DNA from: Jimgerdemannia flammicorona
Lineage: Eukaryota
Reading direction: 5' to 3'
Assembly (NCBI GenBank): GCA_003990765.1
Contig: RBNJ01000090.1
Span: 1 to 42,411 of the forward strand
Length of the DNA stretch: 42,411 bases
Numbering within the stretch: the first letter of the stretch is position 1; each line of letters starts with the position of its first letter. The position numbers and the translations under genes are program-made. Below the pieces are notes generated by a model that had not been told where the DNA came from, did not search any database, and was given only the letters and a program-made list of their open reading frames with translations. This document shows, one piece after another, positions 1 to 42,281 of the stretch.

Positions 1-125
1 CCCCCCCCTACCCCTTCCCTATGAAAGACCACTTTGTTGAACACTATCCCCACCCTCCCACCACTCTGCTCACAGATCCTTACCACCAAACCGTGATGTC
101 ATCCCCCCTGAGGACCCCAACCTGT
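1..125 (-). mobile_element. 5'-truncated LINE fragment (3' end of ORF2), runs off the window edge
   Basis: The reverse complement (ggttggggtcctcaggggg...gatctgtgagcagagtggtgggagggtgggg...tttcatagggaaggggtagg) aligns by eye to the LINE 3' end at 19074-19192. Confidence 0.85.
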
Positions 126-928
126 GTTAGGACTACTGATATAGTATAAAAACTATATATATATTTATTATATATTAGCTAATAAAAGAGCCTAGTGAAA
201 TATATATATATATATATATAAAGAAAGTACTAAGTTCTAATTATCTGTCATAGTGATATAGTCTAGGTATTAATTTCTAGTTCTTATAGTGATATCATTC
301 TTATATCTCAAGTTAATTAGACTCAGAATTATTAACAAGTTAGGTGTGAGGGTTCAATAATAAGAATACTGCTTTATACTTATATTTGAGAAAAGTAGAG
401 CTAAGATTATAATAAACTCAGTATAGAGAATATTTATACAGATTTGAAGTTATGATTAAATATAGTATACTGGGTATATTTATATATAATTATACTATAA
501 ATTTTTATATTTAATATTTAGTTTTTTTTTTTATTTTAATTATAATAGGTTTTATTCAAAATTTAAATAATATATATAATTGCTTTAATATAGATAATAT
601 TTACTATATCAGAAATAATATGTATCTGAACATATCATAATTATCTATTAGCTTTACAAAATACCATAATGTGGCTTATATCATCAATTATATTAATGAC
701 TTCGACGTCTTCGTTTCTGAAACGAACCCAGCTAAACGTCTGCCGTCGACAATCACTGCTCTGTCTACTTCTGCAAGGAGAGCTGGAAGGGAAATGACAA
801 ACAACAAAGGCAAAGGCGTAGAGAGAGTAGAGAGTTCAATTATCACAAGTAGCCAAGCGAGGAAACGATCACTGGCACACTCAGGCGATCCTAATGCAAG
901 AGCCCTTGCCGCTGCTGAAGAGATCGAG

Positions 929-1031
929 GTGCATTAATGCGTTATGTTATACGACATACTTGTTTTAAAATGTTATGAGTTAGTAACACTAATGACCTTT
1001 GCAAATGCAACGTTATGTCATTGCTTGGTAG
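929..1031 (+). other. Intron 1 of the CRN-like pseudogene (phase 0)
   Basis: GAG|gtgcat donor, ctaat branch-like motif near 989, ttggtag|ACT acceptor. The reading frame is preserved. Confidence 0.7.
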
Positions 1032-1118
1032 ACTTCCGGAAATGCCTCATTCTCACCCGCGGAAACATTCTCTTCCTCCTCTACTGCTGTCATCCCCAAT
1101 TTTCTCCAACTTAAAAAC

Positions 1119-1328
1119 GTCGAGGATTGGAACACGGTAGAAGTTTTCCAATTCCTGGATGAAAACATAAACCGCCAGTTCGGAGACTCACACGTTAAAG
1201 CCATTTATGACCAAGAAACTGCCGGGAGCGTTTTACCCGAGCTGAACTACACAAAACTTATTGAGCCGCCTTACAACCTAAAGGCAGGACCAGCAGCTGG
1301 CATTGTCTCATAAATTAGGGAGCTAAAG
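1119..1328 (+). other. SAM (sterile alpha motif) header domain, broken by TAA at 1311
   Basis: Translation VEDWNTVEVFQFLDENINRQFGDSHVKAIYDQETAGSVLPELNYTKLIEPPYNLKAGPAAGIVS*IRELK fits the SAM pattern W..e.V..fL...G..L..L....L......GP...I...I..Lk. It is absent from the ORF track. Confidence 0.75.
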
Positions 1329-1356
1329 GTTGCCAAGGGGCTCTTCAGTGACTCTG

Positions 1357-1413
1357 GTGAGTGTCGCGCAATATATACATCTACTTTTTGATCAATTAGT
1401 GAACAGCCTGCTG

Positions 1414-1449
<36 letters not shown>

Positions 1450-1816
1450 CATTTATACAAGCGGTGTGACAAAAAAACATATTTATACTCGTTTCCAAAC
1501 CACTCTCTTACACTCTCTTTCTCGTGTCCTCGTTCTCCATCACCGTCTGCAGCTCCCCGAGGTATACATCGTTTTGCCCTTTCATTTCGTTATCTCCTCG
1601 AATGTTGGGCGAGCGGCGTTTGTCTGCTCTCTAGCGTGGCTTACGTTTCCACAATGCTTCGTTTTGCTATTTTTCTTGATTTTTCATTGCTGGCTTTGAC
1701 GTTACCTTACACATTGTATTTTCGCGTTAGAGAACGTTTTGGTAACTCTTTCCAAATGCTATTAATTTCAAAGCTTACCAACCTACCTTTTGCTTGAACC
1801 TCATTCTCCTCAATAG
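1357..1816 (+). other. Intron 2 of the CRN-like pseudogene (phase 1)
   Basis: G|gtgagt donor and ctcctcaatag|AG acceptor rebuild a GAG codon that reads into EPLPKKARLDNG, in frame with ORF 1840-2931. Confidence 0.75.
1415..1449 (+). repeat. Poly(T) tract (35 nt) in intron 2
   Basis: Directly visible homopolymer. Confidence 0.95.
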
Positions 1817-3729
1817 AGCCTCTTCCCAAAAAGGCACGTTTGGATAATGGACTCACCCTGGAGGAGGCGGTTGAGGAAGCCAAGCTTACGAGTAAAGCCG
1901 AAGTGAACGGTTCTCTCAAGCTTTCCAGCCTCAACCTGAAGGAAAGAGTTACCCTACTTGGGTTTTTAGGTCGCAAGGTCCCAAATGCAAAACATTCGTT
2001 TAAGGTGCTGTTCAGAACTGCCTGCGATCTCCAAAACAAGAAGATTCGGAACATCATATCTGTACCCCAGAGCAGCGTTGGCCTTCCTGTGATCAATATG
2101 CCGAACCTATATATCAGAGAGTCTTACAGAAACCTTTATAAATATATTGGCCAAAAATTTACGGCTACGCCATCGTGGGGGACAACGAATTGCATCACCG
2201 TCACCGGCACATCTGGTATCGGCAAGTCGGCGTTTCTGGTATACTTTACCATCCGACTTCTCGCTGAGAGCAATGCCGACAACCCTCCAATCATCATTTT
2301 CCACGCTAAAGGTTCAGATTCAGAATGCTATGCCTTTGGAGGGAAAAAAACTTTTCATGCTGGAATTATTACTGATTTTGCACCCTTGATCAACCTTCCC
2401 GAAACATGGTACTTGGCGGACGGTATCCCGCATCCCCAGCTCCGCGTAGCCAAGACCATAATAGCGGTATCACCAGAAACTCTCGATTCTGGTGCCAACG
2501 GCTATAAAGAAGTTACCAAACGGATACCAATTATATATTACATGGAGCCCTGGATGCTGGATGAATTAGAATTGTGCCGGAGCAAAATCTTCACAGATGT
2601 GCCAAAAGACTTGATGGAGGAGCTTTACAATATAATAGGTGGTGTGGCGAGATATGTCCTGGAAGGTGCTGCAACTATATTAAGCCGAGATGCGAAGAAT
2701 AGGGTTGGTGTTGTGAAATACACATATTCTCATGTCAACAAAGCTATTAGCGAAATCAAGAAACCGTCGATGCTTCTGCAATGTGTCGCTCAGGTGAGAG
2801 AATCTTTAGAGTTCAGCAGCCATCTGGTCCACCATTGGCCTAATCCTCGCGATCACACGACGTATCGCCTCGAATGGGCGTCAAACCATATCCTAGAGGA
2901 AATCCGCAATCAGCTGGATACCCAGCCATGAGAGGAAGTATTGAAAGATCTCGTCAAAGCAGATAAAGATCACAGCCTCAGGGGACATTTGTTCGAAATG
3001 CACGTGATACATATCTTTCCGAAGGGTGGCTTTGTATTTGAAGTCAAGAAACTCAAAAATAAAACATCAAGTTGGCTCTAGATTCCAAACAATCCAAAAC
3101 ACGAATCCTTTCAAAAGCTGAATCTGTCCAAATACGACAAACAATGGGAAGCGGAAGAATAACAAGGAGAAAAGGATTTATCCGTCGAGAAATTACTCCT
3201 TCCAACCAATCTTAAACCACCCTTGCGTCGACCTAGTCCTAATACCAGACAACATGTTCCAAGTTACATTAGCTTCACATTACCCTCTCCAACAAATCCC
3301 TTTAAAAAATATTATGAATAAAATCCCGAAATTCGACAGAAAATCTCGGCTATACTTTATCTTACCGGCCAATGTCTATACGAATTTCCGGCTTCTAAAT
3401 TACTAAACCTAGGAAGGTACGGTCTCCGGGGCTGTGCCTAAGGTTAAAACGGATCGCGTTGAGCAATGGCCTCTGAAACTCGATCTTAATTCTGCAACAA
3501 TTGGTAAATCACCTGGTGTAGGAAATGGCAAGCCGTTTTGTAGGAGCACCCAAAAGCCGAAGTTATGTTATTCATATAATACACCTGCTGGCATTGATAA
3601 AACACTTGACTATGCTTTTAAATTGAGTATATCAGTTAATAGAAAGAAGCACTTATGTTTGCGAAATATAGTTTACTGTAGATTACTCAGCACTTTCAAT
3701 ATCTGTTATAGACATAACTGTAAGCAGGC

Positions 3730-3898
3730 ATCTTCCTTCATTACAATTCACTTTACATAAGCTTTTACAATACTTTTGACACTGCTGGGAGAAAGGCAAC
3801 TAGCAACATAATGACATACAAAAATTCTGATAAGTGTACTGGGTCAAGCAGGTCTGGGGCCTTCAGTTAGCAGTATATTGAGAGAGGATATGACATTG
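3730..3898 (+). mobile_element. Relic 5' end of a LINE of the same family, directly upstream of LINE-A
   Basis: acaatacttttgacactg...actagcaacata...gcagtatattgagagagg resembles the 5' ends of LINE-A (3938-4060) and LINE-C (36572-36682). Confidence 0.55.
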
Positions 3899-5183
3899 AG
3901 CCCTTTCTCTAGTATTACTCAGGTGACACAAACTTCTGACAACACTTTTGGCACAACTTTTGAAAAAAAGGTAATAGTAACATAAAAACCAATGATCATT
4001 CTAAGGTGTGTGTTAGGCAGAGTGACTCTAGTGTATTTGACTAGTAGTATGTTGGATAGAGTCATAGCTTGGGAGAGAGTCTGTTGAGCTCTCTTTTAGG
4101 TAGATATTGAGGGAGAAACAGTAGTGCTAGTGGGCAAGAGATGGGAAAGGTGAGCTTTGCTGATAAGCTCAAGGCTGAGCATACTTCAATAAGTCTGAAG
4201 AGTTGGCTGTAGAGAGACAAGGAGAAAGAGAAAGCAGCTGGGCCCAGGAGAGTGGCCCCAGGTAGTAGTAGTAGTGGGGCTGAGAGAGTAGCAGCTAATA
4301 GGGGAGAGAAGAACTGCTGATAGAGGGGAAACTACTAATCTGACAAAAAATCCAGATATGATGACTAATGCTAGAACTAGGCAGAGGGGAGACACAAGGT
4401 CTAGGGATCTGGATAATGGTGTAACAGGTCTGATGGTGATACTATTACTCAAGAAATCAATGTCCAAATTCACTATCACATTGTACTTCCAGGGCTTAGT
4501 AGTTATAGCAAAAATAGTTCATGGACTTTGAGCCCAGAAGGTGAAAGAAGTAGAGGTGGGCTTTGAGGAAAAGGATTTGATATTTTGAATATTGGAGAAA
4601 AGAGTAGTAGTGGAAAGAGTAGTGATCTCCATGGCTCAATGTTTGCACTTGGACCTCTGGGTAGAATAGCTGGTATGGTAAATATATCTATAGTAAAGAA
4701 GAATATAGATAGGGGACAGATTGTTGATATTATCAAGAAGTATAGAGATATAGTAGATATTTGATTCTAGATCTAAAAAGATATAGAGTTCAGGACTGAA
4801 AATGTGGATGTCAAGATAAGGTTGACAGACAAGGAGAATACTGAGAAAGAAAGGGATTAGCCAGTAGTGCTTAATTGGAGAACAGTAGAGTATAATGCCT
4901 TGAGAGTGAAGAGAATGATAGAGGAGGTAAAAAACTTGCTAGAGGTATTAAAAGATCTGGCTAAAACAGTAGAAAAGAGATAGTTGGTCTGGAAGAAGTT
5001 CCCAACTACATAAGACAGTGGTAGAGATTATAAATAGTAAGAAAGTGAGACTAAATTGGACTACCTGAGAGAGAGTACAAGGGAGGTAGCATTAGAAAGA
5101 TTTTTGGGTAAATCTGGGAGAAAGGGCAGAGGGGGAGAATACTACTGAAAGATTTAGATTAAGAATGAGTGCTTGAGTAAAGG
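3899..5183 (+). mobile_element. LINE-A segment 1 (5' end and N-terminal ORF1)
   Basis: The 5' end matches the reverse complement of 30294 downward. ORF1 sequence (aaaaaatccagat, LLKKS.S.FT.TL.F.GL) is shared with 36885-37565 and 29329-29862. Confidence 0.85.
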
Positions 5184-5199
5184 TAGTGCTCTGAATAAG

Positions 5200-5560
5200 T
5201 CAATTTGAATCAAATCCCAATTCAATTCATCACATGACAGTTTGATCTGAATCTCAAATCCAAAGCCATCCAAATCAACTTGGATTAATCTGGATCACTC
5301 TATCTGAATTGTCCCATCTAAATCACTCATCTGAATTACCTCATCTGAACTATCCTATCCAAACCACTCAATCTGAATTACTCAATCTGAATCACTCAAT
5401 CCAAATCACTCAATCCAAATCACTCAATCCAAATCACTCAATCTGAATTACTCAATCTGAAACCTTCAATTCAAATCCTCTAATTCAAATTCTCTAATTC
5501 AAATTCTCTAATTCAAATCCTCATCTGAATCCTACAACCAAATTCTCTAATTAAATCCTC
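5200..5560 (+). repeat. Left subterminal repeats of hAT-1 (about 14-bp unit aatcactcaatc(c/t)(a/g))
   Basis: Tandem aaatcactcaatcc / gaattactcaatct units. Related atccagat/atctggat motifs occur at the right end (11428-11572). Confidence 0.9.
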
Positions 5561-5647
5561 CACATAACTCATATACTAGATATATCTATATATATAATAT
5601 ACATACATGTAAATATATACTTGTATATGCAAACATGCAAATACACA

Positions 5648-8100
5648 TATCAACAGATCAGTCTTCAACAGTTCACAGTACTGATGATGCTTTAAGTCAA
5701 ACATACCTGATAGTTCCACACCTTCCATATAATCCTTGCTCTGAAATCTGAAAACATTATGCTAAGATAGGATATGATGTTGTTTGTAATTATTGTAGGT
5801 AAAAAGTTAAGATACTTCTATTGATATAACTGATACTTTTGTTTGACACACACATGATACTGTTTCATCTACCTACATAAACTGTACCAGCCAGAAGTTC
5901 AAAATACTTAGTAGTATGACTTTGAATATATATTGATACATAAAAGACAAGTACTCTAACAAAATCAAAAAGAATCCAGAGATAAATAAAATTGACATCC
6001 AAGCTATAGTGGGTACATTTATCTGATTGCCTGACCATTTCTATACTAATAACCTCATTTAATCAAAAATATTTAGCCATACTCTTCAGCAAATTTCGAA
6101 ATCAGCTCATTTGCTGAATTGTATATACAGATCAGCCATTCACAACCATCAAGAGTAATTAATTGCATAGTATCTTTGGCCTTCTTAAGTATGATTTATA
6201 TTTTCCAAGTGCTGATACTATTCACAAAGATGTCCTGGAGGCCTATAGAAAGGAGCACAGCAATCTCCACTAGATACTTCAGATAAAATAAGAGTGGGAC
6301 TATGATCTTTGTAAGCTGAATTATATATATATTTTTATAAAGAGCTCACCAATTTAACCTCACATTCAATAAGCAGAATTCAGCAGGCAAAATTTCATTT
6401 ACAATTGACACATGGATATCTCTCAATGAATCATTTCTGGGCATTATCAGTCATTGAATTGATCTTAATTGGTGGCTTAAATCTCTCACCCTTGACTTCA
6501 TCAAACTTGCTGGCCCTCATTCTGAAGACAATATTGTAGATGCTTTTATTAGTTATATCTGGGAGCTTGGGATTACAACCAAGGTACAAAAGAGGGGCTT
6601 GCCATCAGGTTGGCATTTTGAAGGAAGTCCTAAATAAAACAGATTTTATTGGTTATTTATTTTTATATAAATTTACTGACTGAATATTTCAAGTATAGAT
6701 TTTGACCATTATGATGGACAATACCACAAACAACTCAACATTTGTCCAAGTTTTAGTGGTCAGCCTCAAACAGGAAAATGTAGCCTTCAGTACAGAAAGC
6801 TGCTATATATAATGTCAGGCCCATGTACTGAACCTTGCTGTTCAGTACAAATATTATACATGTAGACAAAACATCCAAGAGAAGAGGGGCTCTGAGTATA
6901 ATTTCCAAGCTGTGCAAACTAGTCATTTTAGTCTGATCATCCTCACACCAACAAGAAAAATTCACTACATAGTATAGGGCAATCAGTTTAGTCCCAAAAG
7001 AGCTTATATTGGACCTCTGTATGTATTGGAACTCAACAATTACAATGATCCAGCACATGCTGGAGTTTGCTATAGTATGAATCATTTTTTCTTCAGTCAG
7101 CTACAGTAACTTGTTTTGGATAATTGAAGATTTTTTTTTTTAAAAAAAAAAAACAAAAAAAGCCAATAGATTCAACAGTAGCTGCTGACAAGAAAATACA
7201 GAGTGAGGCTCTAGGTGAAAGCAATTGGTTGTCAGAGTTTTGGAAGTAAGTGGTGATTACTCTGGCTCTACATTTATTTTGTCTGCCTCTACACAATGCA
7301 ATACCTCACCACATATAACTGCTGGTGTTTTAACAATTATACAAAAGATATAGTCAAACAAATGACCCTGACAATAAGCTCTGCAATACCAGTATACAAC
7401 CTTCTGATTGACCAGCTAAAGGATAAGCTCAAGGATAGGCTAGAGGGTTGTAGTGATTTATAGTTAAGCTTGGATCAGAGAGATGTCATGGATGTTGCTC
7501 TAAGCAAACTCAGAAAATACTACTCCAAAACAGATACTGCTATATACTCAATCAGTACAGGTATGTTGGTATGTAGCCATTGCCTCTTCCAAAACAGAGA
7601 AACTCCTACAAAAACTCTCTCTCTTTTCTCTAAACAGTACTGGACCCATGCTTAAAGCTACAATACTATATAAATATATCAAGAGATCCCTCCTGTTTCA
7701 CATTTACTTCAGCAGAAAGTAGAAGAGAGAGCCATTAGTGGAAGAGCTGCCATCAATAGACAAACTTATCATTTATCTCACCAGTGACTACATGATCCTG
7801 CTGAAGGGTGTGGAGGTGCTTAACTAGTAGAAGGTGAGTTGTCAGGCAGGCATTGGGCCAATTTAACCCACCAATCTAACCACTTCTCTACCAACTAGAG
7901 TGTGCAGCTATATTAAATGGACTTCCCCAGCCTGTATAGTATGGCTTGGGACTATCTGGTGATTTCTATCTCCAGCACTCCCATTGAGTGGGTGTTCTCA
8001 GATAGGGTAAACCTCCTTACCCCAAAGAGATGTATACTGAATACTGAGACAATCTGGGCATATATATGTCTGAAGTCTTAGTGGGGCTCAGGTCACTAAA
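5648..8100 (+). pseudogene. Intron-containing hAT transposase pseudogene (BED finger, DDE core, dimerization domain)
   Basis: SEI*KHY...VVCNYC (BED); GKISFTIDTW, FLGIISH*ID, LDFIKLAGPHS; ILTIMMDN; AHVLNLAVQ; YWNST; VLDPCLK; DFPSLYSMAWDYLVI.ISSTPIEWVFS...ICLKS. Many stops. Confidence 0.9.
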
Positions 8101-8224
8101 ATTCAGTAGATTCTGGGGGTTTATGGATAAGTTGGTTGGTATGTGGAATATTTAATACCTTTCAAAAATAAAAGGAAAAAAAACCTGAGGACTCAGCTTA
8201 GAGTTTACAGTCCAAGTAGGGCAG

Positions 8225-8765
8225 TAGTCAGTGGAGTTGGCAGTGGCAGAGAGAGCATACAAAATTTGTCACCCTCTGCCAGCAGCAAGAGACAGCCCCA
8301 GGCTATCAGTGGGCAGGTCAGTAGGCATGGTGTCAGCAGAGAGAGTGTGCAAAATTTGCAGCCCTCTGCCAGTAACAAGAAGCAGCCCTAAGCTACAAGT
8401 GTCTAGAATGAGGGAGTTGGCAGAGAGGGGGGGGGTAGAGGGAGTGTGTAAAATTTATAGCCCTCCACCAGCAGCAAGAGATAGCCCCAAGCTGTCAGTG
8501 CCTAGGTCAGTGGGTGGGGTTGGTTGGCAGGGTCAGTGGGTGTGGAGTTGGCAGAGAGAGTGTGCAAAATTTACAGCTCTCTGCCAGCAGCAAGAGGTAG
8601 CCCCAAGCCACAAGTGTCTGGGATGGGCAGGGCAGGTGGAGAGAGTGTACAAAATTTGTAGTATCAGCAGTATAGAGCTCCCTCCAGCAGCCTGTATCTG
8701 GACCAGGGGTTGGCAGGGTTGGTGGAGAGAGTGTACAAAATTTGTAACCCTCTACCAGTAGCATA
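8225..8765 (+). repeat. Degenerate tandem array (units ~80-115 bp) with core gagagtgt(g/a)caaaattt...ccctctgccagcagcaaga
   Basis: The core recurs near 8250, 8341, 8441, 8556, 8641 and 8726. Confidence 0.85.
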
Positions 8766-8796
8766 GAGGCAGCCTCAAGCTGCCAAGGAGTCTGCA

Positions 8797-8893
8797 AGAG
8801 TACTTCTGGTGGTCAGAGGGTACTTCTGGCAGTTAGAGGGTACTTCTGGCAGTTGGAGGGCATTTCCAGTGGTTGGAGGGTACTTCTGGCAGT
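8797..8893 (+). repeat. Minisatellite, about 20-bp unit gagggtacttctggcagttg
   Basis: About five adjacent copies are visible. Confidence 0.9.
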
Positions 8894-9085
8894 CAAAGTC
8901 CACCACAGATTTGGGCCTCATTGCCAGTTTGGATCCCATGAGCACTCTGGCCCTGCACTGCAATACTATATTGGCAGCACTACAAGAGCAGGACCAAGGG
9001 GCTGGTAGGGCCCAGCATAATGGCTAAACTAGTGCTATAGAAGAGACACCCAGCTACTAGCCCAATCTGCACAAAATGACTGCTG

Positions 9086-9183
9086 AACCCTCATGAAAGA
9101 CTGTCTAACCCTAATGAAAGATTACCTAACCCTCACAAAAGATTGCCTAATCCTCACAAAAGATTGCCTAACCCTCATGAAAT
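9086..9183 (+). repeat. Minisatellite, 21-bp unit aaccctcacaaaagattgcct
   Basis: About five adjacent degenerate copies. Confidence 0.9.
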
Positions 9184-9189
9184 CTGCTC

Positions 9190-11200
9190 CATGTGCTGGT
9201 CTCAGGCCTTGATGAGCCTGTTATCTGTTATGAGTGTGATGACTATTGTGTCTGAGCTCTCCTTAAAGATGATGGTGTCATAGTGGTTATATGGTTAGAA
9301 TAGGGTGACCATGTTGGCTGCAAATGGGACCTCGAAACCATAGGTAAGGTTGTCCAGACTCTGCCACTATCCTTCCAGATTGGGCCCTTCTTTTCTAGGA
9401 TATAGAACCTTACTGGGGTGATATTGTTGTCTGTGGATGTAGGTAGAGAAATATTACACCTGACATATTCTGATGTAACACAAGCATACAGTTGGGTGAA
9501 CTCTTGGCCCAGGACCTTATACTGCCAGGCTGTGTTGGTAGATACCTATCCTTGGTCTAGCCCTGAGAGCCCCAGCTTGGAAATCTGCCAGATGGATGGC
9601 ATCTGGTTAGTTCTTTTTTTGTGTGGAGGGGCAGAAATCCCCCAGGCCACAGAAATCCCATGGGCTGCAGCACCCAAAAAAAGTGGAGCTCCTCACCTCA
9701 TACAGTATACTAAATTGTACAAAGAAGAAATATACAGCTACACTGAGATCACTACCAAGCTGACCTGCCATATACTCTAACAATCTGCACAAAGAACTCC
9801 AGATCATAGCTGCCATTGCTACACAGGCTGTGTCATGCTCATTCATAGTTTGCTCTTCAATGGTACTTCTAAATTTTCAGGAGGGGTACAGAATCTTGTA
9901 CATCTCTGGAATTGAATCAAAAAGTGTATGTCAGTAGAGAGTGTGATTATCTGGAGAGGAGTAAAAAAAAGGGAGATGAGTATGGGGGATTTCGGATCTC
10001 CAGAACCTATCTTTCACTAGTGTTGCAGTATATCCAATTCCCATCCAAACCCCCCTTCCTTGCTTATTTTGCCCACTCTTTTCTGCCACTAAGTATTTGA
10101 TACAATCCTCACAAACCTCATTGATGTGGTAGCAAAGCTCATTACCATAGAGGTTCCTTACCACCATCACAACCACCTCTCTGTATTCATTAATAATGAT
10201 AAAGTTCTCTTTGTCATTAGTTACTCCTACTGGCCAATAGATCCCCTGGTCGAAAATGATTGACTCTGATTTGAATGTAGAGCCCCAAGCCTTGATGATG
10301 ATGCTGGTATTACTCATGCTGAACATCTTACCCTTGAATTTCTCTATTTGATCAGATGCTGGACATGGTTGAACTCCAATAACTTTGAACTCTTCTTTTC
10401 AATGGAACTGAGCCCTGATCTCAGGAGCCAAGATAAGTATGCAGATGGGTTACATACAGATGGGTTGTGTGTCGATAGGTTGTATGTAGATGGGTTGCAT
10501 GTGGGCAGATTGTGTGCAGACAGGTTGCATGCAAGTATGGGTGTTTTTTAGGGAGAGATCATATAAAAAATGAAGTTAAATAAAACACAGAGATGGATAT
10601 TTCAGAAAAAGAGCATGAGTGAGTGAGTGAGTTAGTTGCATACTGACAAGTTGCATGCCGATGAGTTGTACAAGTTACACAAGTTATATAAGATTGCTCA
10701 TGAAGGCTTGCTTCTATTCCTTTTAAGACCTCTGCCACTCGATGCATTAACTCAACAGCTCAGCCACCAAAGACATGCCCTGCAATATCTATCAGCCTTT
10801 CTTCATCTTGATCAGATATTGCAAATAAAGTTGGCAGATCTTGCTGTAGAGCTGTAGACCCTAAGAAAAGCATGAGGTAAATTGAGTCATACTGGGAAAA
10901 TTTAAATAAATACAAGTAAACAAGTTGTAGCAGAGTGAGTATCCTATATCTACTATCAGCTGCTCCAAAAAGGCTACTGTGTACATAGCTGTGAGGTCTG
11001 TGAATTCCAAGGTCTAGTGGGCCACTGTAAGTTGTTGCCAGAATTCTCCCTCATCTCTGCCATTGCTACCACCATCACCATCACCACTACCATCATCACT
11101 GCTGTCACCCCTTTGGCTCTCAATGAGTAGCTTGTGTACTGCCCATATGAGAAAGAATCTAACATTATCAGCAGAGAGTATATTTTTACCTCAAATACTC
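9190..11200 (-). pseudogene. Multi-exon passenger pseudogene inside hAT-1, convergent with the transposase; tentatively a TET/JBP-like 2OG-Fe(II) dioxygenase
   Basis: Coding-like minus-strand segments are separated by introns (e.g. GAG|gtgagg...ctaac...cag|ATT, 9696-9585, phase 0). Motif order: IIINEYREVVVMVVRN, GRGVWMGIGY, YKVLGQEFTQLYAC, (H)..DNN, LDNLTYGFEVPFAANMVTLF*PYNHY, IVITLITDNRLIKA*. The presence of a gene is fairly secure; the family call is weak. Confidence 0.5.
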
Positions 11201-11593
11201 ACTCTTTTAATGATCATTGCAGGGTGAAAAATGAATAGACTGGACCAACATATGATTAAGGGCTGCTGTATTGTTTGCTCATAATGTAGCAGGAAAGAAA
11301 AAAGAAACAAGAAAAAGAACAAAAGAAGAGAGGGAATAAAAAAAAGGGTAATATCACCAAAGTGTGGCAGGAAAAAAAATCAAGAGCAAAAATGACCAAA
11401 AAAAAGGATGATATCACTAAAGATTTCAATCCAGATTAATCCAGAAGGATCAATTCAGATGAATTAATCCAGATAGATCAATCTGGATCAATCTGGATCA
11501 GATTATGAGACCAATATGAGTTGATTTGAATTAATCATATAACAAATCTGAATTGAATCTCATCCAGATCAACTCCATTTGTTTGGAGCACTA

Positions 11594-11928
11594 AGTAAAG
11601 AAGAAGAGAGTGGCTTCTATAGTAACTCTGGGGGAGAGTGGAGGCTCTGGACAGAGTATAGTAGCTGAGGATAAGGTGATTATAGAGGAGGCCCAAGTAT
11701 AGTATAGTGAGTCCATAAGAGGAGAAAGAACTGACAAGCTACAGGATATGCTGGAGAAGGACTGGAATGAGTCAGTGAGGATGAATGCTGAGAGAGGTCA
11801 GGGGATTGGTGGTCCTAAGTATCAATGAGGCTATAGAAGATGAGAGATAGTTATAGAAGATACTGATAAATATTATAGTAAATGAGTTAGGTAAGATACA
11901 TTTTTATATAATTAGTAAGAGGTACTGA
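11594..11928 (+). mobile_element. LINE-A segment 2 (middle of ORF1)
   Basis: tggaatgagtcagtgagg...tagaagat...aggtactga aligns to LINE-C 37999-38175. Confidence 0.8.
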
Positions 11929-12682
11929 TGTAATAAAATAAATAAATGAACAAGATGAACAGATGAGACATGACAAATAATCACATGACCTGATGATGAT
12001 ATCACTATCAATCATCAAATAACATATGATATATAATGAATATAATATAATAAACAAGATGCAAATAATGTGAATGATATAAATAAACAATATCCAGCTT
12101 ATTCTCAGTAACTGGAGCTATAACAAACACTGCAGTAACTAATCATTACCTAACAACAAAGATCCTGATCACAAACCACTTGATTATAAAGATTATAATT
12201 ATAAATCTCACCCATAGTTACTCAAATTAGTCACTCATATTTAGTCAGAAATTATGAACCAACTTGTATAAATATTTCCCAGTTTCTATTTGAAATAAGA
12301 CGGTTTTGGTTCAGTCCTTGATATAAGAATCAAGTTCTCCATATACAGATATATATTCCTCTGAGTTCTAGTAATACTATCTAAGTAACTCTACTATTTC
12401 TGACTAAACTTCAAAAGTCTAGCTAACTTTTGCCAAAACTGAGACTGGTATATAAATCCATTGAATCCGAATTCCAAGGTGAATTCAATCTGTATAAAGC
12501 AAAGAATAAGTTCCTTATAACTATAATTAATAAGAAAGATACTGCTGCTATAACTACTTTTAAGTGGGCACTTCCTTAAACTGAAGACTTCTTTGTATAC
12601 TTATATACTAAGTCTCTAAGTGATATCTGGTTTTCCTAATTATCCAAAAGATAAGAGAGGAGTTAAAATAAAAGTTATTACA
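11929..12682 (+). repeat. 5' LTR (754 bp, TGTAAT...ATTACA)
   Basis: Terminal inverted repeats tgtaat/attaca; colinear with 30672-31401. Confidence 0.92.
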
Positions 12683-14039: not shown

Positions 14040-15765
14040 AACCAAGAATGAAGGCACAACACTGCCAGAGCACTCTCCAGCAAAAGTGAGTTGTGGTTTT
14101 TTGTGATAGTGTTGCCAGTGATTGAAAAAAGCTGGAATTGTCAAAATATCCTAAGCCATAATGGCCAATGTTGGAAATTGGCTTTCAATTAGCTGCCACC
14201 AGTTGAGAGGATTGTCACTGCCATTTCCATTAGTAGTTTAAAGATAGCAATTGAGTTCATTGTTTACATTCATATTATAATTCTTCACAGAAGCACTTCT
14301 CTTTATGATAATAGATTCTCCAACCAGATCATGGAACTTTTGCACCAGTTTCTTCTTTTTAGAGGATGGCAGGAATATCAGAGCTCTCTGTGGAGTGCTG
14401 GAGATAGCCTGAGTAATGAGGTCTGCATACTCCTTAAGCTTGCTGATTTTCCAAATATATTTCTTATCATCTTTCTCTAGTTTTATGTCAGAATGTAGTA
14501 CTTGTGCTAACCAGTATATATCTGAAAGCTTAGTAGTATATTCTTGAAGTTTGCTTACTATAGCTCTATATGCTGGAATATTTTTATTGTTCAGGTATTT
14601 CTTTATAAGAGAATAAATTTCTTCAACTTTATAAAGTATTGGCTCCAAATATGTTGAGAGAGCTTTGGTGGCTTTGGCATAGATTTTTAAAACTTCAACA
14701 TGCATTTCAAGGGCCTTTCACTCATTTAACTCAAGTGTATTACTAATGTTCTTTGTTTGGAACTAGATAAACAAGAGCTGAAGAGCTGGCTTTTGGAGGA
14801 TAGTAGTATTGATCATGGCAAATGTAGAGGACCACCTTGTTGGACAATTATGGGGAAGGTCATAGTACTCAATCTTGCAGTCTTTGCAGCACTTTGAATT
14901 CTCCAATGATTTTAGAGCTCCTCTAGATTGTATTCACACAAAGGCAAAGCTTCATAAGTAGGCTGCTGGTGTTATCCTCATCAAATTCTTCCTCTACATC
15001 AAATAAATTCTTCAATCCATCCTGAACAACAAGGTTGATAACATGTGCACCACATCTGATATAGTATATTTCTCTCTTATATTTGCTGAGGATGATTTCT
15101 GCAAGTAAGTGAAAGCCACGAGTCATATTTGAGGCATTATCAGTGACAAGTACCGGAAACTTATCTTCAATACAATATTCTATAATAGTCATCAAAAGAA
15201 TGTCCTTTATTGCTTTGCCAGTGTGAGGATGCAGCATAGGGCAAATGACCAAAATGATTGCCTGGAGTTTTCAATTTGAATTGATGAAATGTGCTGTCAC
15301 TCCACAATAACTGTCCTTGGATCCTGAGGTCCAGAGGTCAAATGTCAAAGATATAGCTCCTGCTGTATGGTGTAGAGTATGTTGAATATGCCCTTTGTAA
15401 GATTCGAATTTCTCCATCACTAGTTTACAAGTAGTTTGACAGCAAGGAATATAATATCTTGGATTCAGGTGCTTTATGAAGGCTTTGAAGTCTTCATTAT
15501 CAGAAGTTGAGAATGGTTAAAGAGCTTTGACTATCCATGTAATGTAACTACTTGTAATAGTCTTGTGCTCTTGCTGGGTAAGAGGCAATTCAGTTTCCCC
15601 TTCCTTGGTCATCTTTTCGGGATGACATTTCTTGATATGAGTCCACAAGATAGATGTAGCGCTACCGGCTTGATAAATCTTCTCTTTAGGACAATAGTTG
15701 CACTGCCTTGAGCCATTGCCCAATTTCATAAAGTGGTGATAAACGCTGTTTCGGGAGGCACTCAT
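14040..15765 (-). pseudogene. hAT transposase pseudogene, apparently intronless
   Basis: MSASRNSVYHHF...QCNYC...TSILWTHIKKCH (BED); ISLTFDLWTS; PHTGKAI; VTDNASNM; IRCGAHVINLVVQ; PTRWSST; NPLNWWQ...FPTLAIMA*DIL. Broken into ORFs 15517-15822, 14923-15252 and 14238-14705. Confidence 0.92.
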
Positions 15766-15972
15766 TTTGATATATAAGTGTTTTTTGTAAAAGATGTAAA
15801 TTAGCGGCTCATGAGAGACCACAGGTCAATGAAGGCAGGAAAGTCTTAGGCACTTAGGTCTCGGGCATATTGTTTTCGGATGTATTGGTTTCAGGCATTG
15901 AATAGCTGTCTTCGTTTCGGGTGCCATCGTCATTGCATGGCTTGTCTCAGTCATGAGTAGTAACATCCACCT

Positions 15973-18928: not shown

Positions 18929-19306
18929 CACTGTCGGGTGGGTGTTAGCAGTTTGGGTGGGTCTGGCAGGACATTGGCTATTTGTATTTGAGAAGGGGCG
19001 GCAGATGAGCCTGCAGGAGAAGGTTGTAAGGTGGGAGGAGCTGTTGGGGGATCTGTTGACTGGATGGTGGATAGGTTGGGGTCCCTCAGGGGGGTGGCGG
19101 CAAGGTTTGGTGACAAGGATATGTGAACAGAGTGGTGGGAGGGTGGGAATTGTATTCGATAGAGTGGTGTTTCATCGAGAAGGGGTAGGAAGGAGGGACC
19201 CCCCTAGGGGGATTGGTTAGGGGGTGGGTTTATTGTATTTATATAGGGTAGATGGGTGTAATAAAGAATGAGTCCAAGTGACTATAAAAAAAAATAAATA
19301 AAATAA
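18929..19306 (+). mobile_element. LINE-D: 5'-truncated LINE with an A-rich tail
   Basis: Perfect 16-bp TSD aataaggacaaagagc (18913-18928, 19307-19322); 3' end ccaagtgactat(A)n. ORF 18942-19220 is homologous to the ORF2 C-terminus at ~41870-42156. Confidence 0.95.
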
Positions 19307-19322
19307 AATAAGGACAAAGAGC

Positions 19323-22300
19323 TCAACACCATCAAGGAGAAGAACATTTGCATCAAGTTTATACAGACAGAATGTCAATGTCTTATTAGAAAGTTGTGCT
19401 ACTGGAAACTATATTAGTACCAAGACTGCAAAGAGGATTGGAGCCCAAAGTAGACCAGCTACTGAAAAAAGAAGTATTATCTTTGGTAATGGCAAAACTG
19501 CACCTTTGACCAAGATCTATAAAAATATCAAGAGAAGCTATATTTTAGCATCATACTCTTCCAGAATAAGACATTATCCTAGGAAAGACCTAGTTGACTC
19601 AGTACACCCAGGACATCACCTGGAGGATCAATGATGTTAACCTGACTTATGAGAGTAGAAAGATCATCCTATTATATCAAGAAGATTCTAACTATCAAGG
19701 AATCAAGATCATCTCTACCATTCAAATGAAGAGACTCTCTTGTAAAAAAGAAAATACATACTTAATCTGTATTGCACAAGAAGTCACTGAAGCCCCAAGA
19801 AGTCCAGTCTCATCAGAAGCTTAAGAATTATTTGAGAAATTTTAAGATATATTCTAGAAATCTAAAGAACTTCCAACAAAGTGCCAAATTCAATATGGAA
19901 TTAACTTCATACCAGGATCTGAACCTCTATACAAGAGTATCTACCATCTGGTCCAATCTAAACTCAAGATTCTCAAGGATGAGTTAATAAAACTATTGAC
20001 CTAAGGATATATTAAATCTAGCTGTTCTCTATTTGGAGAACCCATTCTGTTTATTAAGAAGAAGTATGGCTCTCTGCACAATATATATCAACTATAGAGC
20101 TCTCAATAAGATCACTATCAAGAACCAGTATATCTTACCTAGGATTGTTAAGTTATTATACCAAATCTTCAAGACCAAGACCTTTTTCCTACTGGACTTG
20201 TAAAATAGTTATTACCAGATTCTTATTGATAAGAAGAATATTGGAAAGACAGCTTTCAGAATATATTTTGGATACTACTAGTTCTGAGTCATGCCTTTTG
20301 ATTTGACCACTATACCAGTAATATTCCAATATCTAATTAGCAATATCTTTGGACTATTGCTCAATATTTATGTCCTTATATATAATGATTATATACTAAT
20401 CAACAGTAAAACAGTAGAGCTATACTACACTCATCTCAGGCATATACATACTGATCCTTTTACAAGAATACCAGCTATATGCCAAGATGGGTAAGTGTAA
20501 ATTCTATTAAGACCAGATTGAGTATCTAGAACATATCATCTCTGCTAAAGGCATCAATGTAGAACTCCAAAAGGTATCAGCTCTCAAGGATATCTCTATC
20601 TCTACTACCCTCAAGCTACTTCAGTATATCCTGAGTATTATAGGTTACTACCAAAGATTTATCTAAAGATATCTTGCTATTATAGTCCCACTAACTGATC
20701 TGGCCCACAAAAGAGTAAATATCAAGAATGAATGGATTTCCAAGTACACTCAGGCCATGGACCACCTCAAGAGATTTCTTATCAAGGCTCTAGTACTAAT
20801 TATATCTGACTCTACTAGGCTATTTACTCTGACCACAGTTGTCTCTAATATTGTCATTGGGGTAGTATTCAGCCAAGAAGATCATCCAGTGGCCTATCTC
20901 ACCTAAAAGCTCAAGCCAGCTAAGACTCAGTATTCTACTCATGAGAAGGAACTTCTGACCATTGTCACTGCACTCTAGGAATTGTACCACTTTCTTCTAA
21001 GACAAACATTTGTGACCTTCACTAATGACTCTATTCTGTGATTATACAGTCCATGCTGATCTACAGATAAGCCAATTGAATAGAAATCATAGCCAACTTT
21101 AATATAGAAAACAAGTATATCTCAGACAAAACCAACCTTATGACTAATGGTTTCTCCAGATATATGGAGGATAAATCTGTCTTTATGGTTGAGGTAATTA
21201 GAGACCTCACTCTGATTATCAAAGATGACTACCAACAAGGCAGCCTCCTGGTAAAATTCCTTCAATTCTATCAAAATGCAGAGGCTAAGATCTCAGAATC
21301 CATGAGGCAAATTTTCAAAAGATTTACTTATCATAATGCACTTATCTATAGAGACTATGACAGAGTGATTATACCCAATAATGATACTCTATAACTTAAG
21401 ATTTTACAGGAACTCTATAATATTTCTATAGTAAGACATTTTAGTTTTGAGAAGACCTGCAATCTCCTCTCAAGAGAGTTCTACTGACTAAAGATGACTA
21501 AAGATATCAAAGATTTCATAGCTTCATCTCAGATGTGTCAAAGATTCAAAAGTGGCAACAAGTTATCAATAGGACTTCTGCAACCCCTGTCCATCCTTTG
21601 CCATAACTGGGATCAGATTGCAATGGTCTTCATTGTCTAGCTCCCCAAGACTAAGGCAGGATAGAATACTATTATAGTATTTATAGACTGTCTGAGTAAA
21701 TAAGCTTACTTTACCCCCAATAAGACTACTGCTATAGTATCAGAAATTGCTAAAATCTTTCTCAACCAAGTATTCAGACTATATGGCATATCTAGTTCCA
21801 TTGTCTCTGAATGTGATGCTAAGTTTAAAAGCAACTTCTAGAAGACATTCTTCTCTCTCCATAGAACCAAGCTCAAGTTCTCTACTGCCTACCACTCTCA
21901 GACTAATGGTCAGACTGAGTGAACCAATAGGAGTCTCAAGAAGATGTTCAGTATTTTTTACTATTATAAGCAAAGTGATTGAGACAAATATCTAGTCCAT
22001 ACTGAGTTTGTCTACTACAATAGCTAGTAAATCTCTATGAAGATAACTCCATTCTTTCTAAACTATAATCAATACCCAAGAACCCTGAGTACTACTATAA
22101 AATTGGTAGTTCCAGCAGCTCAAGATCTGGTCAAGACTCTTTCGGATCTTATACAAATGACAAGAGAAGCTCTCATAGAAGTATAGGACTACTAAACTAA
22201 GTATGCCAACTTGAAGTAAAGGGAAGCCTCTTACAATATTAGTGACATAGTTATACTTAGAATAGACCATCACTATCCAGATACCCTAACACAGCAACAA

Positions 22301-23972: not shown

Positions 23973-26900
23973 CTACCCAATCCACATAGGGGAACCCCCC
24001 CCCTTTATGCTTGAAAACCACCCTGTCTCCTATGATCCTAATTCTCTCCCTACTCTTTTCTCCACCAAATAGCATTGCTGACCACCCTGCAGTCCCCACC
24101 CATACCACCAGCCCATCAGAGTATCTGCCATCAATCCTTCTCATTATAACAGTTATACCCCAAAGCCCAGATGCCTCCCATTCTCAAACACAAACAACCA
24201 GTGACCTGCCAACCCCACCTATATAGCCAGCACCCACCCTAAAGTGAGCCACTTCTTTTCAACCTCTCCCACCAATCTATCCCATGGATCCTTCCACTGA
24301 CCCCTCACACTATCTCCTCTCTACATGACACCCAACCTCTTCACAACTCCTAGTGCTCCTAATGAGTCAATTTAATCTGGATTAGATTCAGATTGATTCA
24401 GATTGAATCTCATCCTGATCAACTTGGATGGGATTCAAATCCCATCTGGATGGATTCGAATTAACCATTGTTTTGATTTCCAAATTAGACAATTAAATGT
24501 TTACATCAATAACTCAATGAATAATCATCCAAATTTGATGATCTTGATGTCATTTGAATGCCCTTAATAAGACCAATCTAATGATATCAAGAACATTGCA
24601 ATTGGATCATGCGTTGCTGAGTTATGAAGGAAACCGTCTGAATTGCCAATTTTGGAAATTATTCAATTTGCCAATTTTGGAAATTTCATCAAATAGAATA
24701 TTTTCCTTAATATCTCATCTCGGCAACGCGTAATCCGATTTTAATGTTCTTGGTATCATTAGAAAGGCCTTATTAAGGTCTTTCAAATGACACCAAGATC
24801 ATCAAATTTGGATGATTATTCATCAAGTTATTGATGTAAATATTTAATTACCTAATTTGGAAATCAAAACAATTGTTGATTCGAATCCATCTGGATGGAA
24901 TTTGAATCCCATCTGGATTGACTCATTCAGAGAACTATCAACTGCTATCCAGAAGTTACTGAGCATCTCACACTCCTCTAGCCAATGTTCAGGCATCTGC
25001 ATAAAGCTCTCTTCCTGTCCAACATTATAGCACTCCTCACAGTCAAAGGTTCTCCCATCCACCAGGTGGCCAGAGTGAAAGTTGAGCATGATATTCTACT
25101 GCAATATATGTCACCAGACCACTCAATACTTTGGTGACAGCAACCACTGAACCTCAGCTCTCCAGGTCCAGATACCACTCTAGTCCCACTCTTCTCTGAC
25201 ACCCACTAATGACTATCTGCTGGGCCATAATCCTGCCCCAACCTCCTGTGGCACTCAACTCCATCACCAATATCAAAGTCACCAAGAGAGATGCCCTCCA
25301 GCAACACTTGGTCTCATCTCTATATTGCTGGGCCCAAGGCCTTTCTTTCTCATCTCTCTTCTAATGAATGCCACTGTGGTGTGCCCCATCAGCAACTCCC
25401 CACCAGAAGCTCTTAAACTACATATGCCTATTGTTCTGAAGCCCAACCAAGGACAGAAGATCTCCTGTGAAACCTCTCAGTGAGGAACTCATCTCCCAGA
25501 CCTTCTTCAATAGAGGAACTCAGCTGCTGCCCTCTAGCTCAACAGCTCTCTTTATCTACTATACTCTCAGATAGTGTAATTTCTTCAGGAAGTCCACCAG
25601 CCTGAGTCCCCCTCTAGTCACTGGTAGGGACAAAATTTCCCAGCTAATCTGACTCCTCCTCTCAGCCCAGATCCACCCCTTGGTCAGTTTTAGCAATCTC
25701 TTCACCACTCAGGCCAGGAAATTCAGATAATAGACCAGATATCACAACTTTGGCATCCAGTAAGTATTGAAGATGGAAACACATCTATACCAGAGACAAG
25801 TAGTGGCCTCCCTAGCTCCACAGGGCCTCTCCCCAGATAACCACCCACTGCTCCCACCAGAGTTTTGGGAGAACTGACCCATATACTGAAAGATAGATGC
25901 CTAAGTATCTCACTGCCTCCCCAGTAGAGACAATTGTTCTGATACATCCCCCCCCACCAGACCATTATCCAGCACTATTGTTTCATACTTATGTCAATTG
26001 AGTTTAGCCCCAGAATGTAACTCTTATCACTCTATAGTCTCCTTGAGTTCCTCAATATCAGTAATTGAGTCCAGACTAACTACTATATCATCCACAAAGG
26101 TACCAACTTTCCACTCAATGCCAAAAACTGAAAGCTCTCTTATCTTCTACCAAATTCTAAAATTCTATCCATTAAGAACTCCAAGATGAGTGCATACAAA
26201 ATGAGAGACAACAGGTCCCTCTGGGGAATACTCCTACCTAGAGAGAAAGTCACCCCTCAATGCCCATTATATATGATCACAGCCCTGCTCTCTTCCAGTA
26301 GACTGCCTATTGCTTCTAAGAACTATTGAGGGATATCAATTCTATCGAGTACTTTTGCCAATCTAACTCTCTGAACATGGTCATATGTCTTCTCCTGATC
26401 CAAGAAGACTAGGCACTCATCTAGTCCACAGGCTTATGTCCCTTCAATAACACTATATACCCAAGCTATATTATCCTGAATGTGTTGGCCTCTGACAAAT
26501 CCCCACTGCTCCACTCTCAAGACCTATTGGACCACCTTCTGCAGCCTCACTACCATTATATTAGTAATCAACTTCCTGTCTATATCCAGTATCATGATCA
26601 GTCTCCAGGTCTTCCAGTCCTCTCTCCTATCCTTGTTCTTATACTGCAGCATCACCAGCCTCAGATCCTGCTCACCTACCTATCTCTCAGACTGTAGTAC
26701 CAAGTCACATAGTGCCCTCAGCTCTCTCAGCAAATCAGAGATATCCACCATCTTCTTCCAGAAAGCCCAGGGCAGGCCATCCTCCCCTGGTGCTATACTC
26801 AGCATAGTTGCAGCAAGAATCTGATGAATCTCCTCCTCCTGCACTAGTATCACCAGATTGCCCAGCCCTTCTATCTATTGTGGGTGCCAATCCCCCAAGG

Positions 26901-28187
26901 CCAGACCAATGGTGGCTTCCTCAGCCCCACCCTCCTTCTCACTCCACAAGCCACTCTACTGCTCCTTCAGTGACCTGAGAATGTCATATATACTATGTAC
27001 AAATAGTTCCTCAGAAACTAGAACCCCTCCCACCTCTACTGAACCCTCCTTACTCAAAGAGCCCTTGTGAGAAACTTAAAGGGCCTCTCTCCTTCCTCCA
27101 GCCCCTGCCAATATAGATATACTGCCAAACTCTACACCTGCACTTCCTCCACCTCCTGCAATATCTGTTACAACTTCATAACCTCCATTTTTACCCATAA
27201 AAATCTCCAATCCTCCACCCTCTTCAGGACCAACAGACCTGTCCAATCTTCCAACAGTCTCATCAATATAACAGAAGCCCACAGTCTCTTCTTCCTCCTC
27301 TATCTCCCAGCAACTATACCTGTCTCTCTTCAATAAACCCTAGCAGCCTCTTTCAGCCTCATTCACCTAGCTCCAACTGAGACACCTTTCTATATCCACC
27401 CCTCCACCCTCTGCTAAATATCCTCAGTCCACTTGTCCCATAGTATCTTATTGTCTAATAGGGAGGAGTTGAGACACCAATGTCCCAGTCCATCCCTACT
27501 CTCACCAAAATGGCTCTATCTCAGCAATCTCTAATGATCAGACCATGAACACCATTCAGCCTCCAGAGACCTCTAAACATCCAGACTCCAGCAGTCCACT
27601 GTCAAAATCCAGTTAATCCTTATCTCCAGACAACTTGCCTAATGTGTGTACACCCTCCTGTCACCCCACAGCCTGCTACTAACATCCACCAAAGAACTCA
27701 GCCTCTCTACTTCCTCCCATATCTCCAGACCTCCACTCCTACTCTCTGGCCCCCACCCTCCATCAGTTCTCTCCAACAGTACATCTCTGACCATATTAAA
27801 GTCTCCACCAAGCATATCTAGTCCAGCCTTTGCCAGAGTCCCTTCCTTCTAGAGACTCTTCACTTACTCTACATACTCACTCTGCACTGCAGAACAGTAG
27901 TAAGATTCCACTGTAACTGGTTCCTGACCAAGGTGAATCCACTCTTCCCAAACCAGCCTATCTCCCCAGTTCTGCACATCTTGTACCTCTCCTCTGCCCT
28001 TCCAAACTGCCTCCCATCTCTATTCCTTCATCAATTCCAGTTTATCCAAATCATTCTCACACCTGACATCCTGCAAAAGAAAGAGATCAGCCTCCAATCC
28101 CTTCAGCCAAGCAAAAATATTCTATTAATAGAATGAACCCTATAGTCTATTTACATTTTAAGAAAAAATGTTAGTTGTACTATTTAT
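23973..28187 (-). pseudogene. LINE-B ORF2 (APE endonuclease, RT, C-terminal cysteine finger), interrupted by a MITE
   Basis: LGGDFNMV, WSDH, LDQEKTYD, PQRDLLS, FVDDI, FDCEEC...EHWLEEC. Confidence 0.88.
24351..24937. mobile_element. Non-autonomous hAT element / MITE (587 bp), largely palindromic
   Basis: TIRs tagtgctcctaatgagtcaat / attgactcattcagagaacta (same family as hAT-1 and hAT-3); degenerate 8-bp TSD acaactcc / tcaactgc; internal inverted arms ~24428-24632 and ~24702-24913; no ORF. Confidence 0.9.
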
Positions 28188-28218
28188 AAGAAAAAATATA
28201 TAATAGTAAGTATATCCT

Positions 28219-38510: not shown

Positions 38511-38541
38511 GCTGGGTTCTCAAATTCAACCATTATTCAAT

Positions 38542-41500: not shown

Positions 41501-42156
41501 GGGATTGGTAAGAAGTGAGACTGGAATGGTCTTTGGCCTTAGAGCAAGCAGGTGATGAGGTGGCTTCCCCCCAAGTTCTGAGTGATATGGTGGCAGTTAC
41601 TAAGGTAGAATGTGATGTTGAACTATCAGTCTAGGCACCTGGTGGTGGATGGTGTATTTGAGTGTGAGGAATGTTTTAATGTTGGACAGGAAGGTGGAGT
41701 GCTACAAATGCCTGAACATTGGCTTGGTGAGTGTGATGTTTTAGGAGAGTTTTGGTGCCACATTGCAGGCTGGTTAGGACTGTGGGCCCTGGTGGGAGGG
41801 GATAGAGAGAGATGGGGAGAGCTCTACCAAAGGCTAGTGAGAGGGGTTGAAGATGAATGGTTGATCCTGGGTTTGGCTCTGGCAATTTGGATTGGGCTGG
41901 CTGAGCATTGGTTACATATATTTGAGGAGGGCCAGCAGGTTGGGGTTGGGGCTAGAATAGTATATTGAGAATGGCTATTACTGGACATTTGAATGGCTGG
42001 TGGAGAGGGTGGGGGCTGGGTGGTGGGAGCTGCTGGAGTTTGGTGAAATGTATTTGCCAGAAAAGTAGAGGGAGGATTTGGGTGGTGGGTGACAGGGTTA
42101 TCCTTCAACAGAGAGGAATGGAGAGTGGAGAGAGAGATCCAAGAGGTATCAGTTGA
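38542..42156 (+). pseudogene. LINE-C ORF2 (APE endonuclease, reverse transcriptase, cysteine finger)
   Basis: MNSITRIFSLNMNGL, LGGDFNMV, WSDHW (APE); NW*PIILL, NQEKAYDRV, GRGVPQGDPL, AFVDNI, YYLGI, KGGLG (RT); FECEEC...EHWLGEC. Confidence 0.93.

Positions 42157-42219: not shown

Positions 42220-42281
<62 letters not shown>

Follow-up and report, generated by a model that had tools for sequence, protein, structure and literature searches.

In a 42,411-nucleotide stretch of DNA from Jimgerdemannia flammicorona (contig RBNJ01000090.1, positions 1 to 42,411, here called the window), an old, inactivated DNA transposon of the hAT superfamily (5184-11593, 6.4 kb) contains, besides the remains of its transposase gene, the remnant of a second gene, the passenger. 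We consider it probable (about 0.65) that the passenger encodes a very divergent 2-oxoglutarate/Fe(II) (2OG/Fe(II)) dioxygenase of the TET/JBP kind, from an intron-containing gene convergent with the transposase, and that its nearest described relatives are the PE-type enzymes. This TET-like assignment is moderately supported by sequence comparison, and the support comes entirely through the PE type.

The passenger gene and its coding sequence

The passenger remnant occupies approximately positions 9202-11200 of the minus strand, downstream of the transposase and convergent with it, in agreement with the original prediction of about 2 kb of coding-like minus-strand exons. Its coding-like frames run from about position 11190 down to a final TGA at 9202-9204 (Table 1). 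The peptides quoted in that prediction were all recovered on the minus strand, namely IIINEYREVVVMVVRN (10153-10200), GRGVWMGIGY (10030-10059), YKVLGQEFTQLYAC (9480-9521), STDNN (9423-9437, with the neighbouring frame reading YIHRQQ at 9424-9441), LDNLTYGFEVPFAANMVTLF followed by a stop and PYNHY (9280-9357), and IVITLITDNRLIKA followed by a stop (9202-9246). The predicted GT-AG introns are represented by at least one that is consistent in phase, with the donor GTGAGG at 9696-9691 and the acceptor TAG at 9548-9546 (by reading of the sequence). The largest frame of the passenger, with 155 codons, runs on in frame through the stops TGA 9931-9933 and TGA 9877-9879 into the next stretch (9697-9876), and no Pfam family was found in the upstream frames (10763-11190). 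The passenger is disrupted in at least six places, by five in-frame stops and at least one frameshift. In this copy it is a pseudogene, and the element, both of whose genes are dead, does not constitute a functioning system. The window contains the passenger only once.

An exhaustive HMMER search of 1,835,955,588 representative proteins with the translated 155-codon frame (the 155-aa frame) gave two matches at E ≤ 0.001. The first, P0001 (128 aa), matched at E 3.1e-18, and BLASTP aligned it with the 155-aa frame without gaps at 39 identities in 117 positions (33%, E 6e-24). The second, P0002, is a repeat protein of 1031 aa in which the match consists of eleven stretches of 21 residues each, and it was rejected as a spurious relative. 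P0001 forms a cluster by itself and derives from a 755-bp metagenome contig; it is rich in Arg and Gly, and is therefore encoded by DNA of a composition quite different from that of the window. Because a protein from such differently composed DNA matches at this level, the passenger is regarded as a real gene, and the sequence match indicates that it is the genuine coding sequence of a conserved protein. The opposite explanation, that there is no gene and that the open frames arose by chance in AT-rich, CpG-free repeat DNA, could draw on the fact that frames of 155 codons are no great rarity when 42 kb are translated in all six frames, and that the other frames are short and interrupted. It is refuted by the P0001 match, which extends ungapped over 116 residues and comes from an unrelated metagenome contig of other composition, and we give it next to no credence.

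Word-seeded searches with the 155-aa frame, alone or combined with P0001, found no further relatives among longer proteins, and among proteins of similar length recovered P0001 alone. The ESM Atlas contained no usable match to the 155-aa frame or to P0001, and a scan of JGI metagenome contigs with the two sequences together produced 305 pattern matches and no relative.

Comparison with PE-type enzymes and other families

Three types of TET/JBP-like enzymes (PU, AG and PE) were defined by Kojima 2025 (PMC12730594), where HxE in place of HxD is given as the hallmark of the PE type. For comparison with the window, a PE set was compiled through one degenerate motif scan of metagenome contigs, which yielded 26 loci (L001-L026), 25 of them (all but L019) with PE-type genes. 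Six-frame open reading frames (ORFs) of the PE loci were assembled into a profile of 79 rows and 278 columns. The search set of 1783 sequences was made up of P0001 and all 1782 ORFs in the window that reach 15 aa.

Searched with HMMER and this profile, the 155-aa frame ranked first among the 1783 sequences (E 0.097, at columns 25-68 of the profile); the runner-up from the window had an E-value of 8.8 and the best reversed-sequence control one of 1.7. When the four coding stretches were linked by X into one sequence, its score against the profile was 7.5 bits, a value reached in 1 of 1000 within-stretch shuffles. The hhalign placements on the profile follow the order of the window gene, with three colinear stretches (Table 1). 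Over several comparisons with the PE type, the N-terminal block gave P-values of 0.0007-0.006 and the C-terminal block of about 0.02-0.05. With a 9-row N-terminal PE alignment, P was 0.00074 for the 155-aa frame alone and 0.0016 for the frame combined with P0001; P0001 by itself gave P 0.056, on profile columns that it shares with the 155-aa frame. Against single PE genes, BLASTP with the 155-aa frame gave E 0.005 (L008) and E 0.001 (an exon of L007). When the 26 loci were searched by tblastn with P0001 and the stretches from the window, no match fell below E 0.3, and the similarity is one picked up by profile methods and not by tblastn.

The blocks common to the PE type (Pezizomycete and Agaricomycete transposons, 25 loci) and the window protein are colinear and comprise an N-terminal strand plus helix, an A.A..W..LC+ helix (P 0.07) and a C-terminal Y-G-x-x-[IV]...A-N...P...H...T-x-x-R-L block (P 0.02-0.05). 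Within the P 0.05 alignment, T-D-N-R-L of the window is paired with the S/T-x-x-R-L/I at the end of the PE profile, and by eye the window gene and several PE genes stop three residues past the conserved hydrophobic-T-x-x-R-L block. Also by eye, and unscored, the window stretches are colinear with 12 PE-type sequences from Table S1 of PMC12730594; short motifs taken from the window and P0001 had no close match among the readable sequences of that table. Both the PE type and the window protein are missed by Pfam Tet_JBP at its threshold. Pairwise identity between them is about 27-32% over just 30-53 columns, which makes the relationship very remote. The resemblance is weak but consistent, being colinear and reproduced by two programs, and it points to distant homology with the PE type, not to membership in it.

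Most genes in the PE loci have two conserved intron positions, one after the N-terminal exon and one between N-Y-S-R and A-I-H-x-E, while L008 is an intron-free frame of 468 codons. In the G-G-H-F-F block, the residue before F-F/Y is N instead of H in many PE loci. The first of the two introns is not found in the window gene. By eye, the second coincides with extra residues and a frame problem before I-H in the window, where a decayed intron is possible.

Several results weigh against the assignment of the passenger to the TET/JBP kind, and the first group concerns the catalytic motifs. In frame, the stretch corresponding to the first metal site reads S-T-D-N-N (9423-9437) and contains no HxD, while I-H-R lies in the neighbouring frame; the caution attached to the original prediction, that HxD is not cleanly intact, was well placed. 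The resemblance to HxD at 9375-9545 is by eye only, and hhalign gave no signal for this part of the gene. At the position aligned by eye the acidic residue is D (GAC, 9429-9431), and the HxE that marks the PE type was not seen. A His at 9286-9288 lies one residue off the aligned second His of the PE type. Because this copy is a pseudogene, the missing in-frame HxD says something about the copy, not about the family to which it belongs. The motif order of TET/JBP type proposed from the sequence is upheld in part, by the modest colinear PE-type scores and the first rank of the 155-aa frame, and finds no echo in the HxD region.

The direct family tests weigh on the same side. A comparison with Pfam came back empty: neither Tet_JBP (PF12851) nor Tet-like (PF20515) was found for the 10 window frames scanned, at E ≤ 1 or at E ≤ 10. 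No other Pfam family was found for these 10 frames, and none for P0001. No relevant match to the 155-aa frame, or to the frame combined with P0001, was present among PDB sequences. AlphaFold2 returned unusable models both for the 155-aa frame (2-row alignment, mean predicted local distance difference test score (pLDDT) 29.8) and for the PE-type relative L008 (17 rows, pLDDT 42.0), and for this reason the double-stranded beta-helix is unconfirmed here. The P-values against the PE type are all modest and each comes from a single comparison, and a 17-row PE alignment (A4), in which the N-terminus is represented by a single row, gave only P 0.096. The reading moreover comes from one copy of the element, so that cargo status and co-mobilisation are presumptive.

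A further weak point is how the PE type is connected to TET proteins, which depends mostly on one paper. In Kojima 2025 (PMC12730594), predicted structures of the PE type are reported to be significantly similar to those of CMD1, NgTET and CcTET, and the type is described as remote from known TETs (HHpred E 1.4). In our set, 2 of 14 PE locus proteins gave sub-threshold Pfam matches (PF20515 'Tet-like' at E 0.012; PF12851 Tet_JBP at E 0.22), both falling on the expected C-terminal block. Alignment A4 matched only SUMO-E1 chains, at E >1, and no TET among PDB sequences.

Some of these results also fit a passenger from an unrelated, unknown family, either captured or specific to transposons, whose PE likeness would reflect chance and shared composition. 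The lack of a Tet or other Pfam family, of a PDB match and of a usable Atlas match fits such a gene, as do best single P-values of just about 1e-3 and the silent catalytic-motif stretch, and the by-eye comparison was made with the hypothesis already known. We nevertheless regard another family as unlikely, since three separate stretches match the PE profile in order and in place, the last reaching the end of the domain, while the 155-aa frame takes first rank in the search set, the joint score is so rarely equalled by shuffles, and P0001, at 33% identity to the window frame, falls on the matching PE columns.

For a passenger of the TET/JBP kind, we infer by analogy that its product would have the fold and the catalytic activity of these dioxygenases, that passenger and transposase would have moved jointly, and that the passenger would have had an anti-silencing role. 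An intact element would express a dioxygenase acting on the DNA of the element itself, where it would oxidise 5-methylcytosine or a similar modified base. Such oxidation would counter methylation-based silencing, and possibly also the C-to-T (CpG-to-TpG) decay that follows methylation.

The hAT element and its decay

The element was originally described as a hAT having terminal inverted repeats (TIRs) as well as a target site duplication (TSD), and both were found, together with a hAT domain in the transposase remnant. Complementarity between the two ends is perfect over the first 8 bases only (TAGTGCTC at the left end, GAGCACTA on the plus strand at the right end). The word TAGTGCTC alone is weak evidence, as it has 4 matches in the window with 1.39 expected, and four or more occurred in 6 of 100 shuffles. 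The flanking sequences AGTAAAGG and AGTAAAGA directly abut the TIRs and are identical at 7 of 8 bases. An alternative is the perfect 7-bp duplication AGTAAAG, which requires the left end to be moved by one base. The TSD, read from one copy, fits either length, 8 bp (7 of 8 identical) or 7 bp with offset ends. Inverted subterminal repeats are present at both ends, for example 5281-5295 and 11429-11443, which are complementary at 15 of 15 nucleotides. Elements of the hAT superfamily typically have short TIRs with ends of the YARNG type, and TSDs of 8 bp. With its TAGTG ends and likely 8-bp TSD, the element appears to be of a conventional hAT type.

The transposase gene survives as decayed remnants on the plus strand. 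One of 11 plus-strand ORF pieces contains the hAT dimerisation domain Dimer_Tnp_hAT (PF05699, 7917-8081, E 1.3e-7, 31.7 bits with a cut-off of 21.4). In the other 10 pieces no relevant Pfam family was found, including the RNase-H-like DDE core and the BED finger, which were not recognised because the gene is too decayed. From these features the element is identified as an old, inactivated member of the hAT superfamily.

Between transposase and passenger lie degenerate tandem repeats (8130-9182), made up of ~95-bp units (66-80% identity) and of two arrays, the 20-bp one at 8800-8893 and the 21-bp one at 9086-9182. On the other side of the passenger, an A-rich stretch (11285-11425) sits between its upstream end and the right subterminal repeats. 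It contains two copies of a AAAAAAAGG-N-A-N-TATCAC-N-AAAG-like word and may be a candidate promoter region.

Table 1. Positions of the features of the hAT element and of its passenger gene, with hhalign results for the passenger stretches against the PE profile
Feature	Position	Strand	Details	hhalign with PE profile
Left TSD AGTAAAGG	5176-5183		agrees with right flank AGTAAAGA at 7/8 bases	
Left TIR TAGTGCTC	5184-5191	+	word match	
Left subterminal 14-bp repeats	5287-5522		tandem period 14 and 42; inverted matches to 11429-11531	
Decayed hAT transposase remnants	6160-8081 (start approximate)	+	dimerisation domain at 7917-8081	
Internal repeats between transposase and passenger	8130-9182		~1 kb, degenerate tandem; self-BLAST and repeat search	
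Last passenger coding stretch	9202-9357	-	one-frame shift relative to preceding stretch; in-frame TAA 9295-9297; final TGA 9202-9204	P 0.05; 2/90 shuffles; columns 228-278 (domain end); 32% identity over 44 columns
Passenger coding stretch expected to hold first metal-binding motif	9375-9545	-	starts after acceptor TAG 9548-9546	9375-9533: no signal; 52/90 shuffles reach score; no columns
Next passenger coding stretch, holding ACVAMAAMIWSSLCRLL	9697-9876	-	same frame as 155-codon frame; in-frame TGA 9877-9879	P 0.074; 7/90 shuffles reach score; columns 103-135
155-codon open frame, N-terminal half of TET-like domain (putative)	9934-10398	-	preceded by in-frame TGA 10399-10401; then TGA 9931-9933	P 0.0034; 0/90 shuffles reach score; columns 25-88
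Upstream coding-like passenger frames	11014-11190 and 10763-11050	-	second continues past in-frame TGA 10760-10762 into 10559-10759	
Right subterminal repeats	11429-11531		repeat search; inverted matches to left end	
Right TIR	11586-11593	-	GAGCACTA on + strand	
Right TSD AGTAAAGA	11594-11601		flank comparison	

The layout bears on another explanation, in which ~9200-11250 would be a fragment of a different element with a TET gene (for instance a Helitron, IS3EU or EnSpm), inserted or recombined into this copy of the hAT. A single copy was examined, and the ~1 kb of unrelated tandem repeats that separates passenger and transposase is compatible with such an origin. Against it, the segment is bordered neither by inverted repeats nor by a target duplication, since in the sole candidate pair (9035-9058 and 11599-11622, 71% complementary) one of the arms falls beyond the end of the element; the layout of the hAT subterminal repeats is preserved to either side, and the segment shares the complete CpG loss of the element. 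We consider a foreign fragment distinctly improbable and treat the passenger as a probable gene of the hAT element itself.

The CpG loss in repeats noted in the original prediction is nearly total here. The four 2-kb bins of 4001-12000 contain 0, 1, 2 and 4 CpG (observed/expected ≤0.05), with TpG+CpA raised to 1.14-1.31, while the first two 2-kb bins of the window contain 58 and 69 CpG (observed/expected about 0.8). The passenger segment shares the CpG loss of the whole hAT element. If the passenger did serve an anti-silencing strategy, its limit would be marked by the loss of practically all CpG that the element nevertheless suffered.

Published transposon-borne TET/JBP genes and other features of the window

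A full-text literature search on TET/JBP cargo in hAT elements found Kojima 2025 (PMC12730594) alone on point. There, 11 lineages of DNA transposons in fungi are described as carriers of TET/JBP genes, among them 20 TET-carrying hAT7 families in six Puccinia species, and an anti-silencing role of transposon-borne TET/JBP proteins is already proposed. The statement in the original prediction that such genes were not known as hAT cargo is outdated by these hAT7 cases. Both the cargo and the anti-silencing idea are in print, and the window element, on the favoured reading, adds one more, divergent case to them without opening a new class of system.

The Puccinia hAT7 elements and the window element are both hAT transposons with a TET/JBP-like gene inside the TIRs, and escape from methylation-based silencing is the proposed role in both cases. 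As PMC12730594 describes the hAT7 elements, they differ from the window element in three respects. The hAT7 elements have 7-bp TSDs, whereas the flanks in the window fit a TSD of 8 bp at 7 of 8 bases, or of 7 bp only with offset ends. The hAT7 enzymes are of the PU type, whereas the window protein is unlike two PU-type sequences (by eye, unscored). In the three P4-cluster families described, the TET gene lies upstream of the transposase and is co-oriented with it, whereas the window passenger lies downstream and is convergent.

The introduction of the same paper (PMC12730594) also refers to TET/JBP genes associated with Kyakuja-Dileera-Zisupton (KDZ) transposons in basidiomycetes. These have in common with the window element a transposon-linked expansion of TET/JBP-like genes in fungi and the idea of epigenetic self-defence, and differ from it in the transposase superfamily (hAT in the window) and in the enzyme lineage. 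Canonical fungal TET/JBP proteins match PF12851 or PF20515, whereas the window frames have no such match.

The window element departs from the published hAT cases in its PE-like (not PU) lineage with a single known relative, in its conventional-looking hAT type and in its convergent layout. Tentatively, and at somewhat less than even odds, we propose that the window gene and P0001 represent a fourth, undescribed lineage of transposon-borne TET/JBP-like enzymes. Such a lineage would be distantly sister to the PE type, with HxD retained, and its carrier would be a conventional hAT element, not hAT7; it would be nearly absent from a collection of 15 billion proteins because nothing but unannotated, CpG-decayed repeats of large fungal genomes would preserve it.

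A DNA-demethylating enzyme carried by a transposon would be a direct counter to genome defence, and the list of its carriers was widened only in late 2025. If the assignment is true, this copy extends that list by one more lineage of the enzyme and one more type of hAT, and the two came together on another separate occasion. With a dead copy and a family assignment of only moderate support, little practical value follows; the window frame and P0001 are mainly of use as a seed in searches for intact members in the source genome.

The window as a whole is repeat-rich eukaryotic DNA. Positions 1-4000, with near-normal CpG, contain a 377-codon open frame (1798-2928, plus strand) without a Pfam family, and are probably a host gene beside the repeat field. 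A second hAT-like remnant (14241-15825, minus strand) includes a BED zinc finger at 15520-15825 (PF02892, E 2.7e-6); no TAGTGCTC ends were found near it, and it has no copy of the passenger. It is followed by the remnant of a long terminal repeat (LTR) retrotransposon (19302-20903, plus strand), in which 19302-19631 matches an aspartyl protease (E 8.9e-4, a score that does not reach the cut-off) and 20667-20903 matches RT_RNaseH_2 (E 5.6e-8). Strong GC skew of opposite sign marks 24000-30000 (-0.3 to -0.55) and 37000-42411 (+0.34 to +0.55). Parts of these skewed blocks are old inverted copies of one repeat (24968-26119 and 40575-41736, 67-72% identity), and a palindrome is located at 24427-24913.

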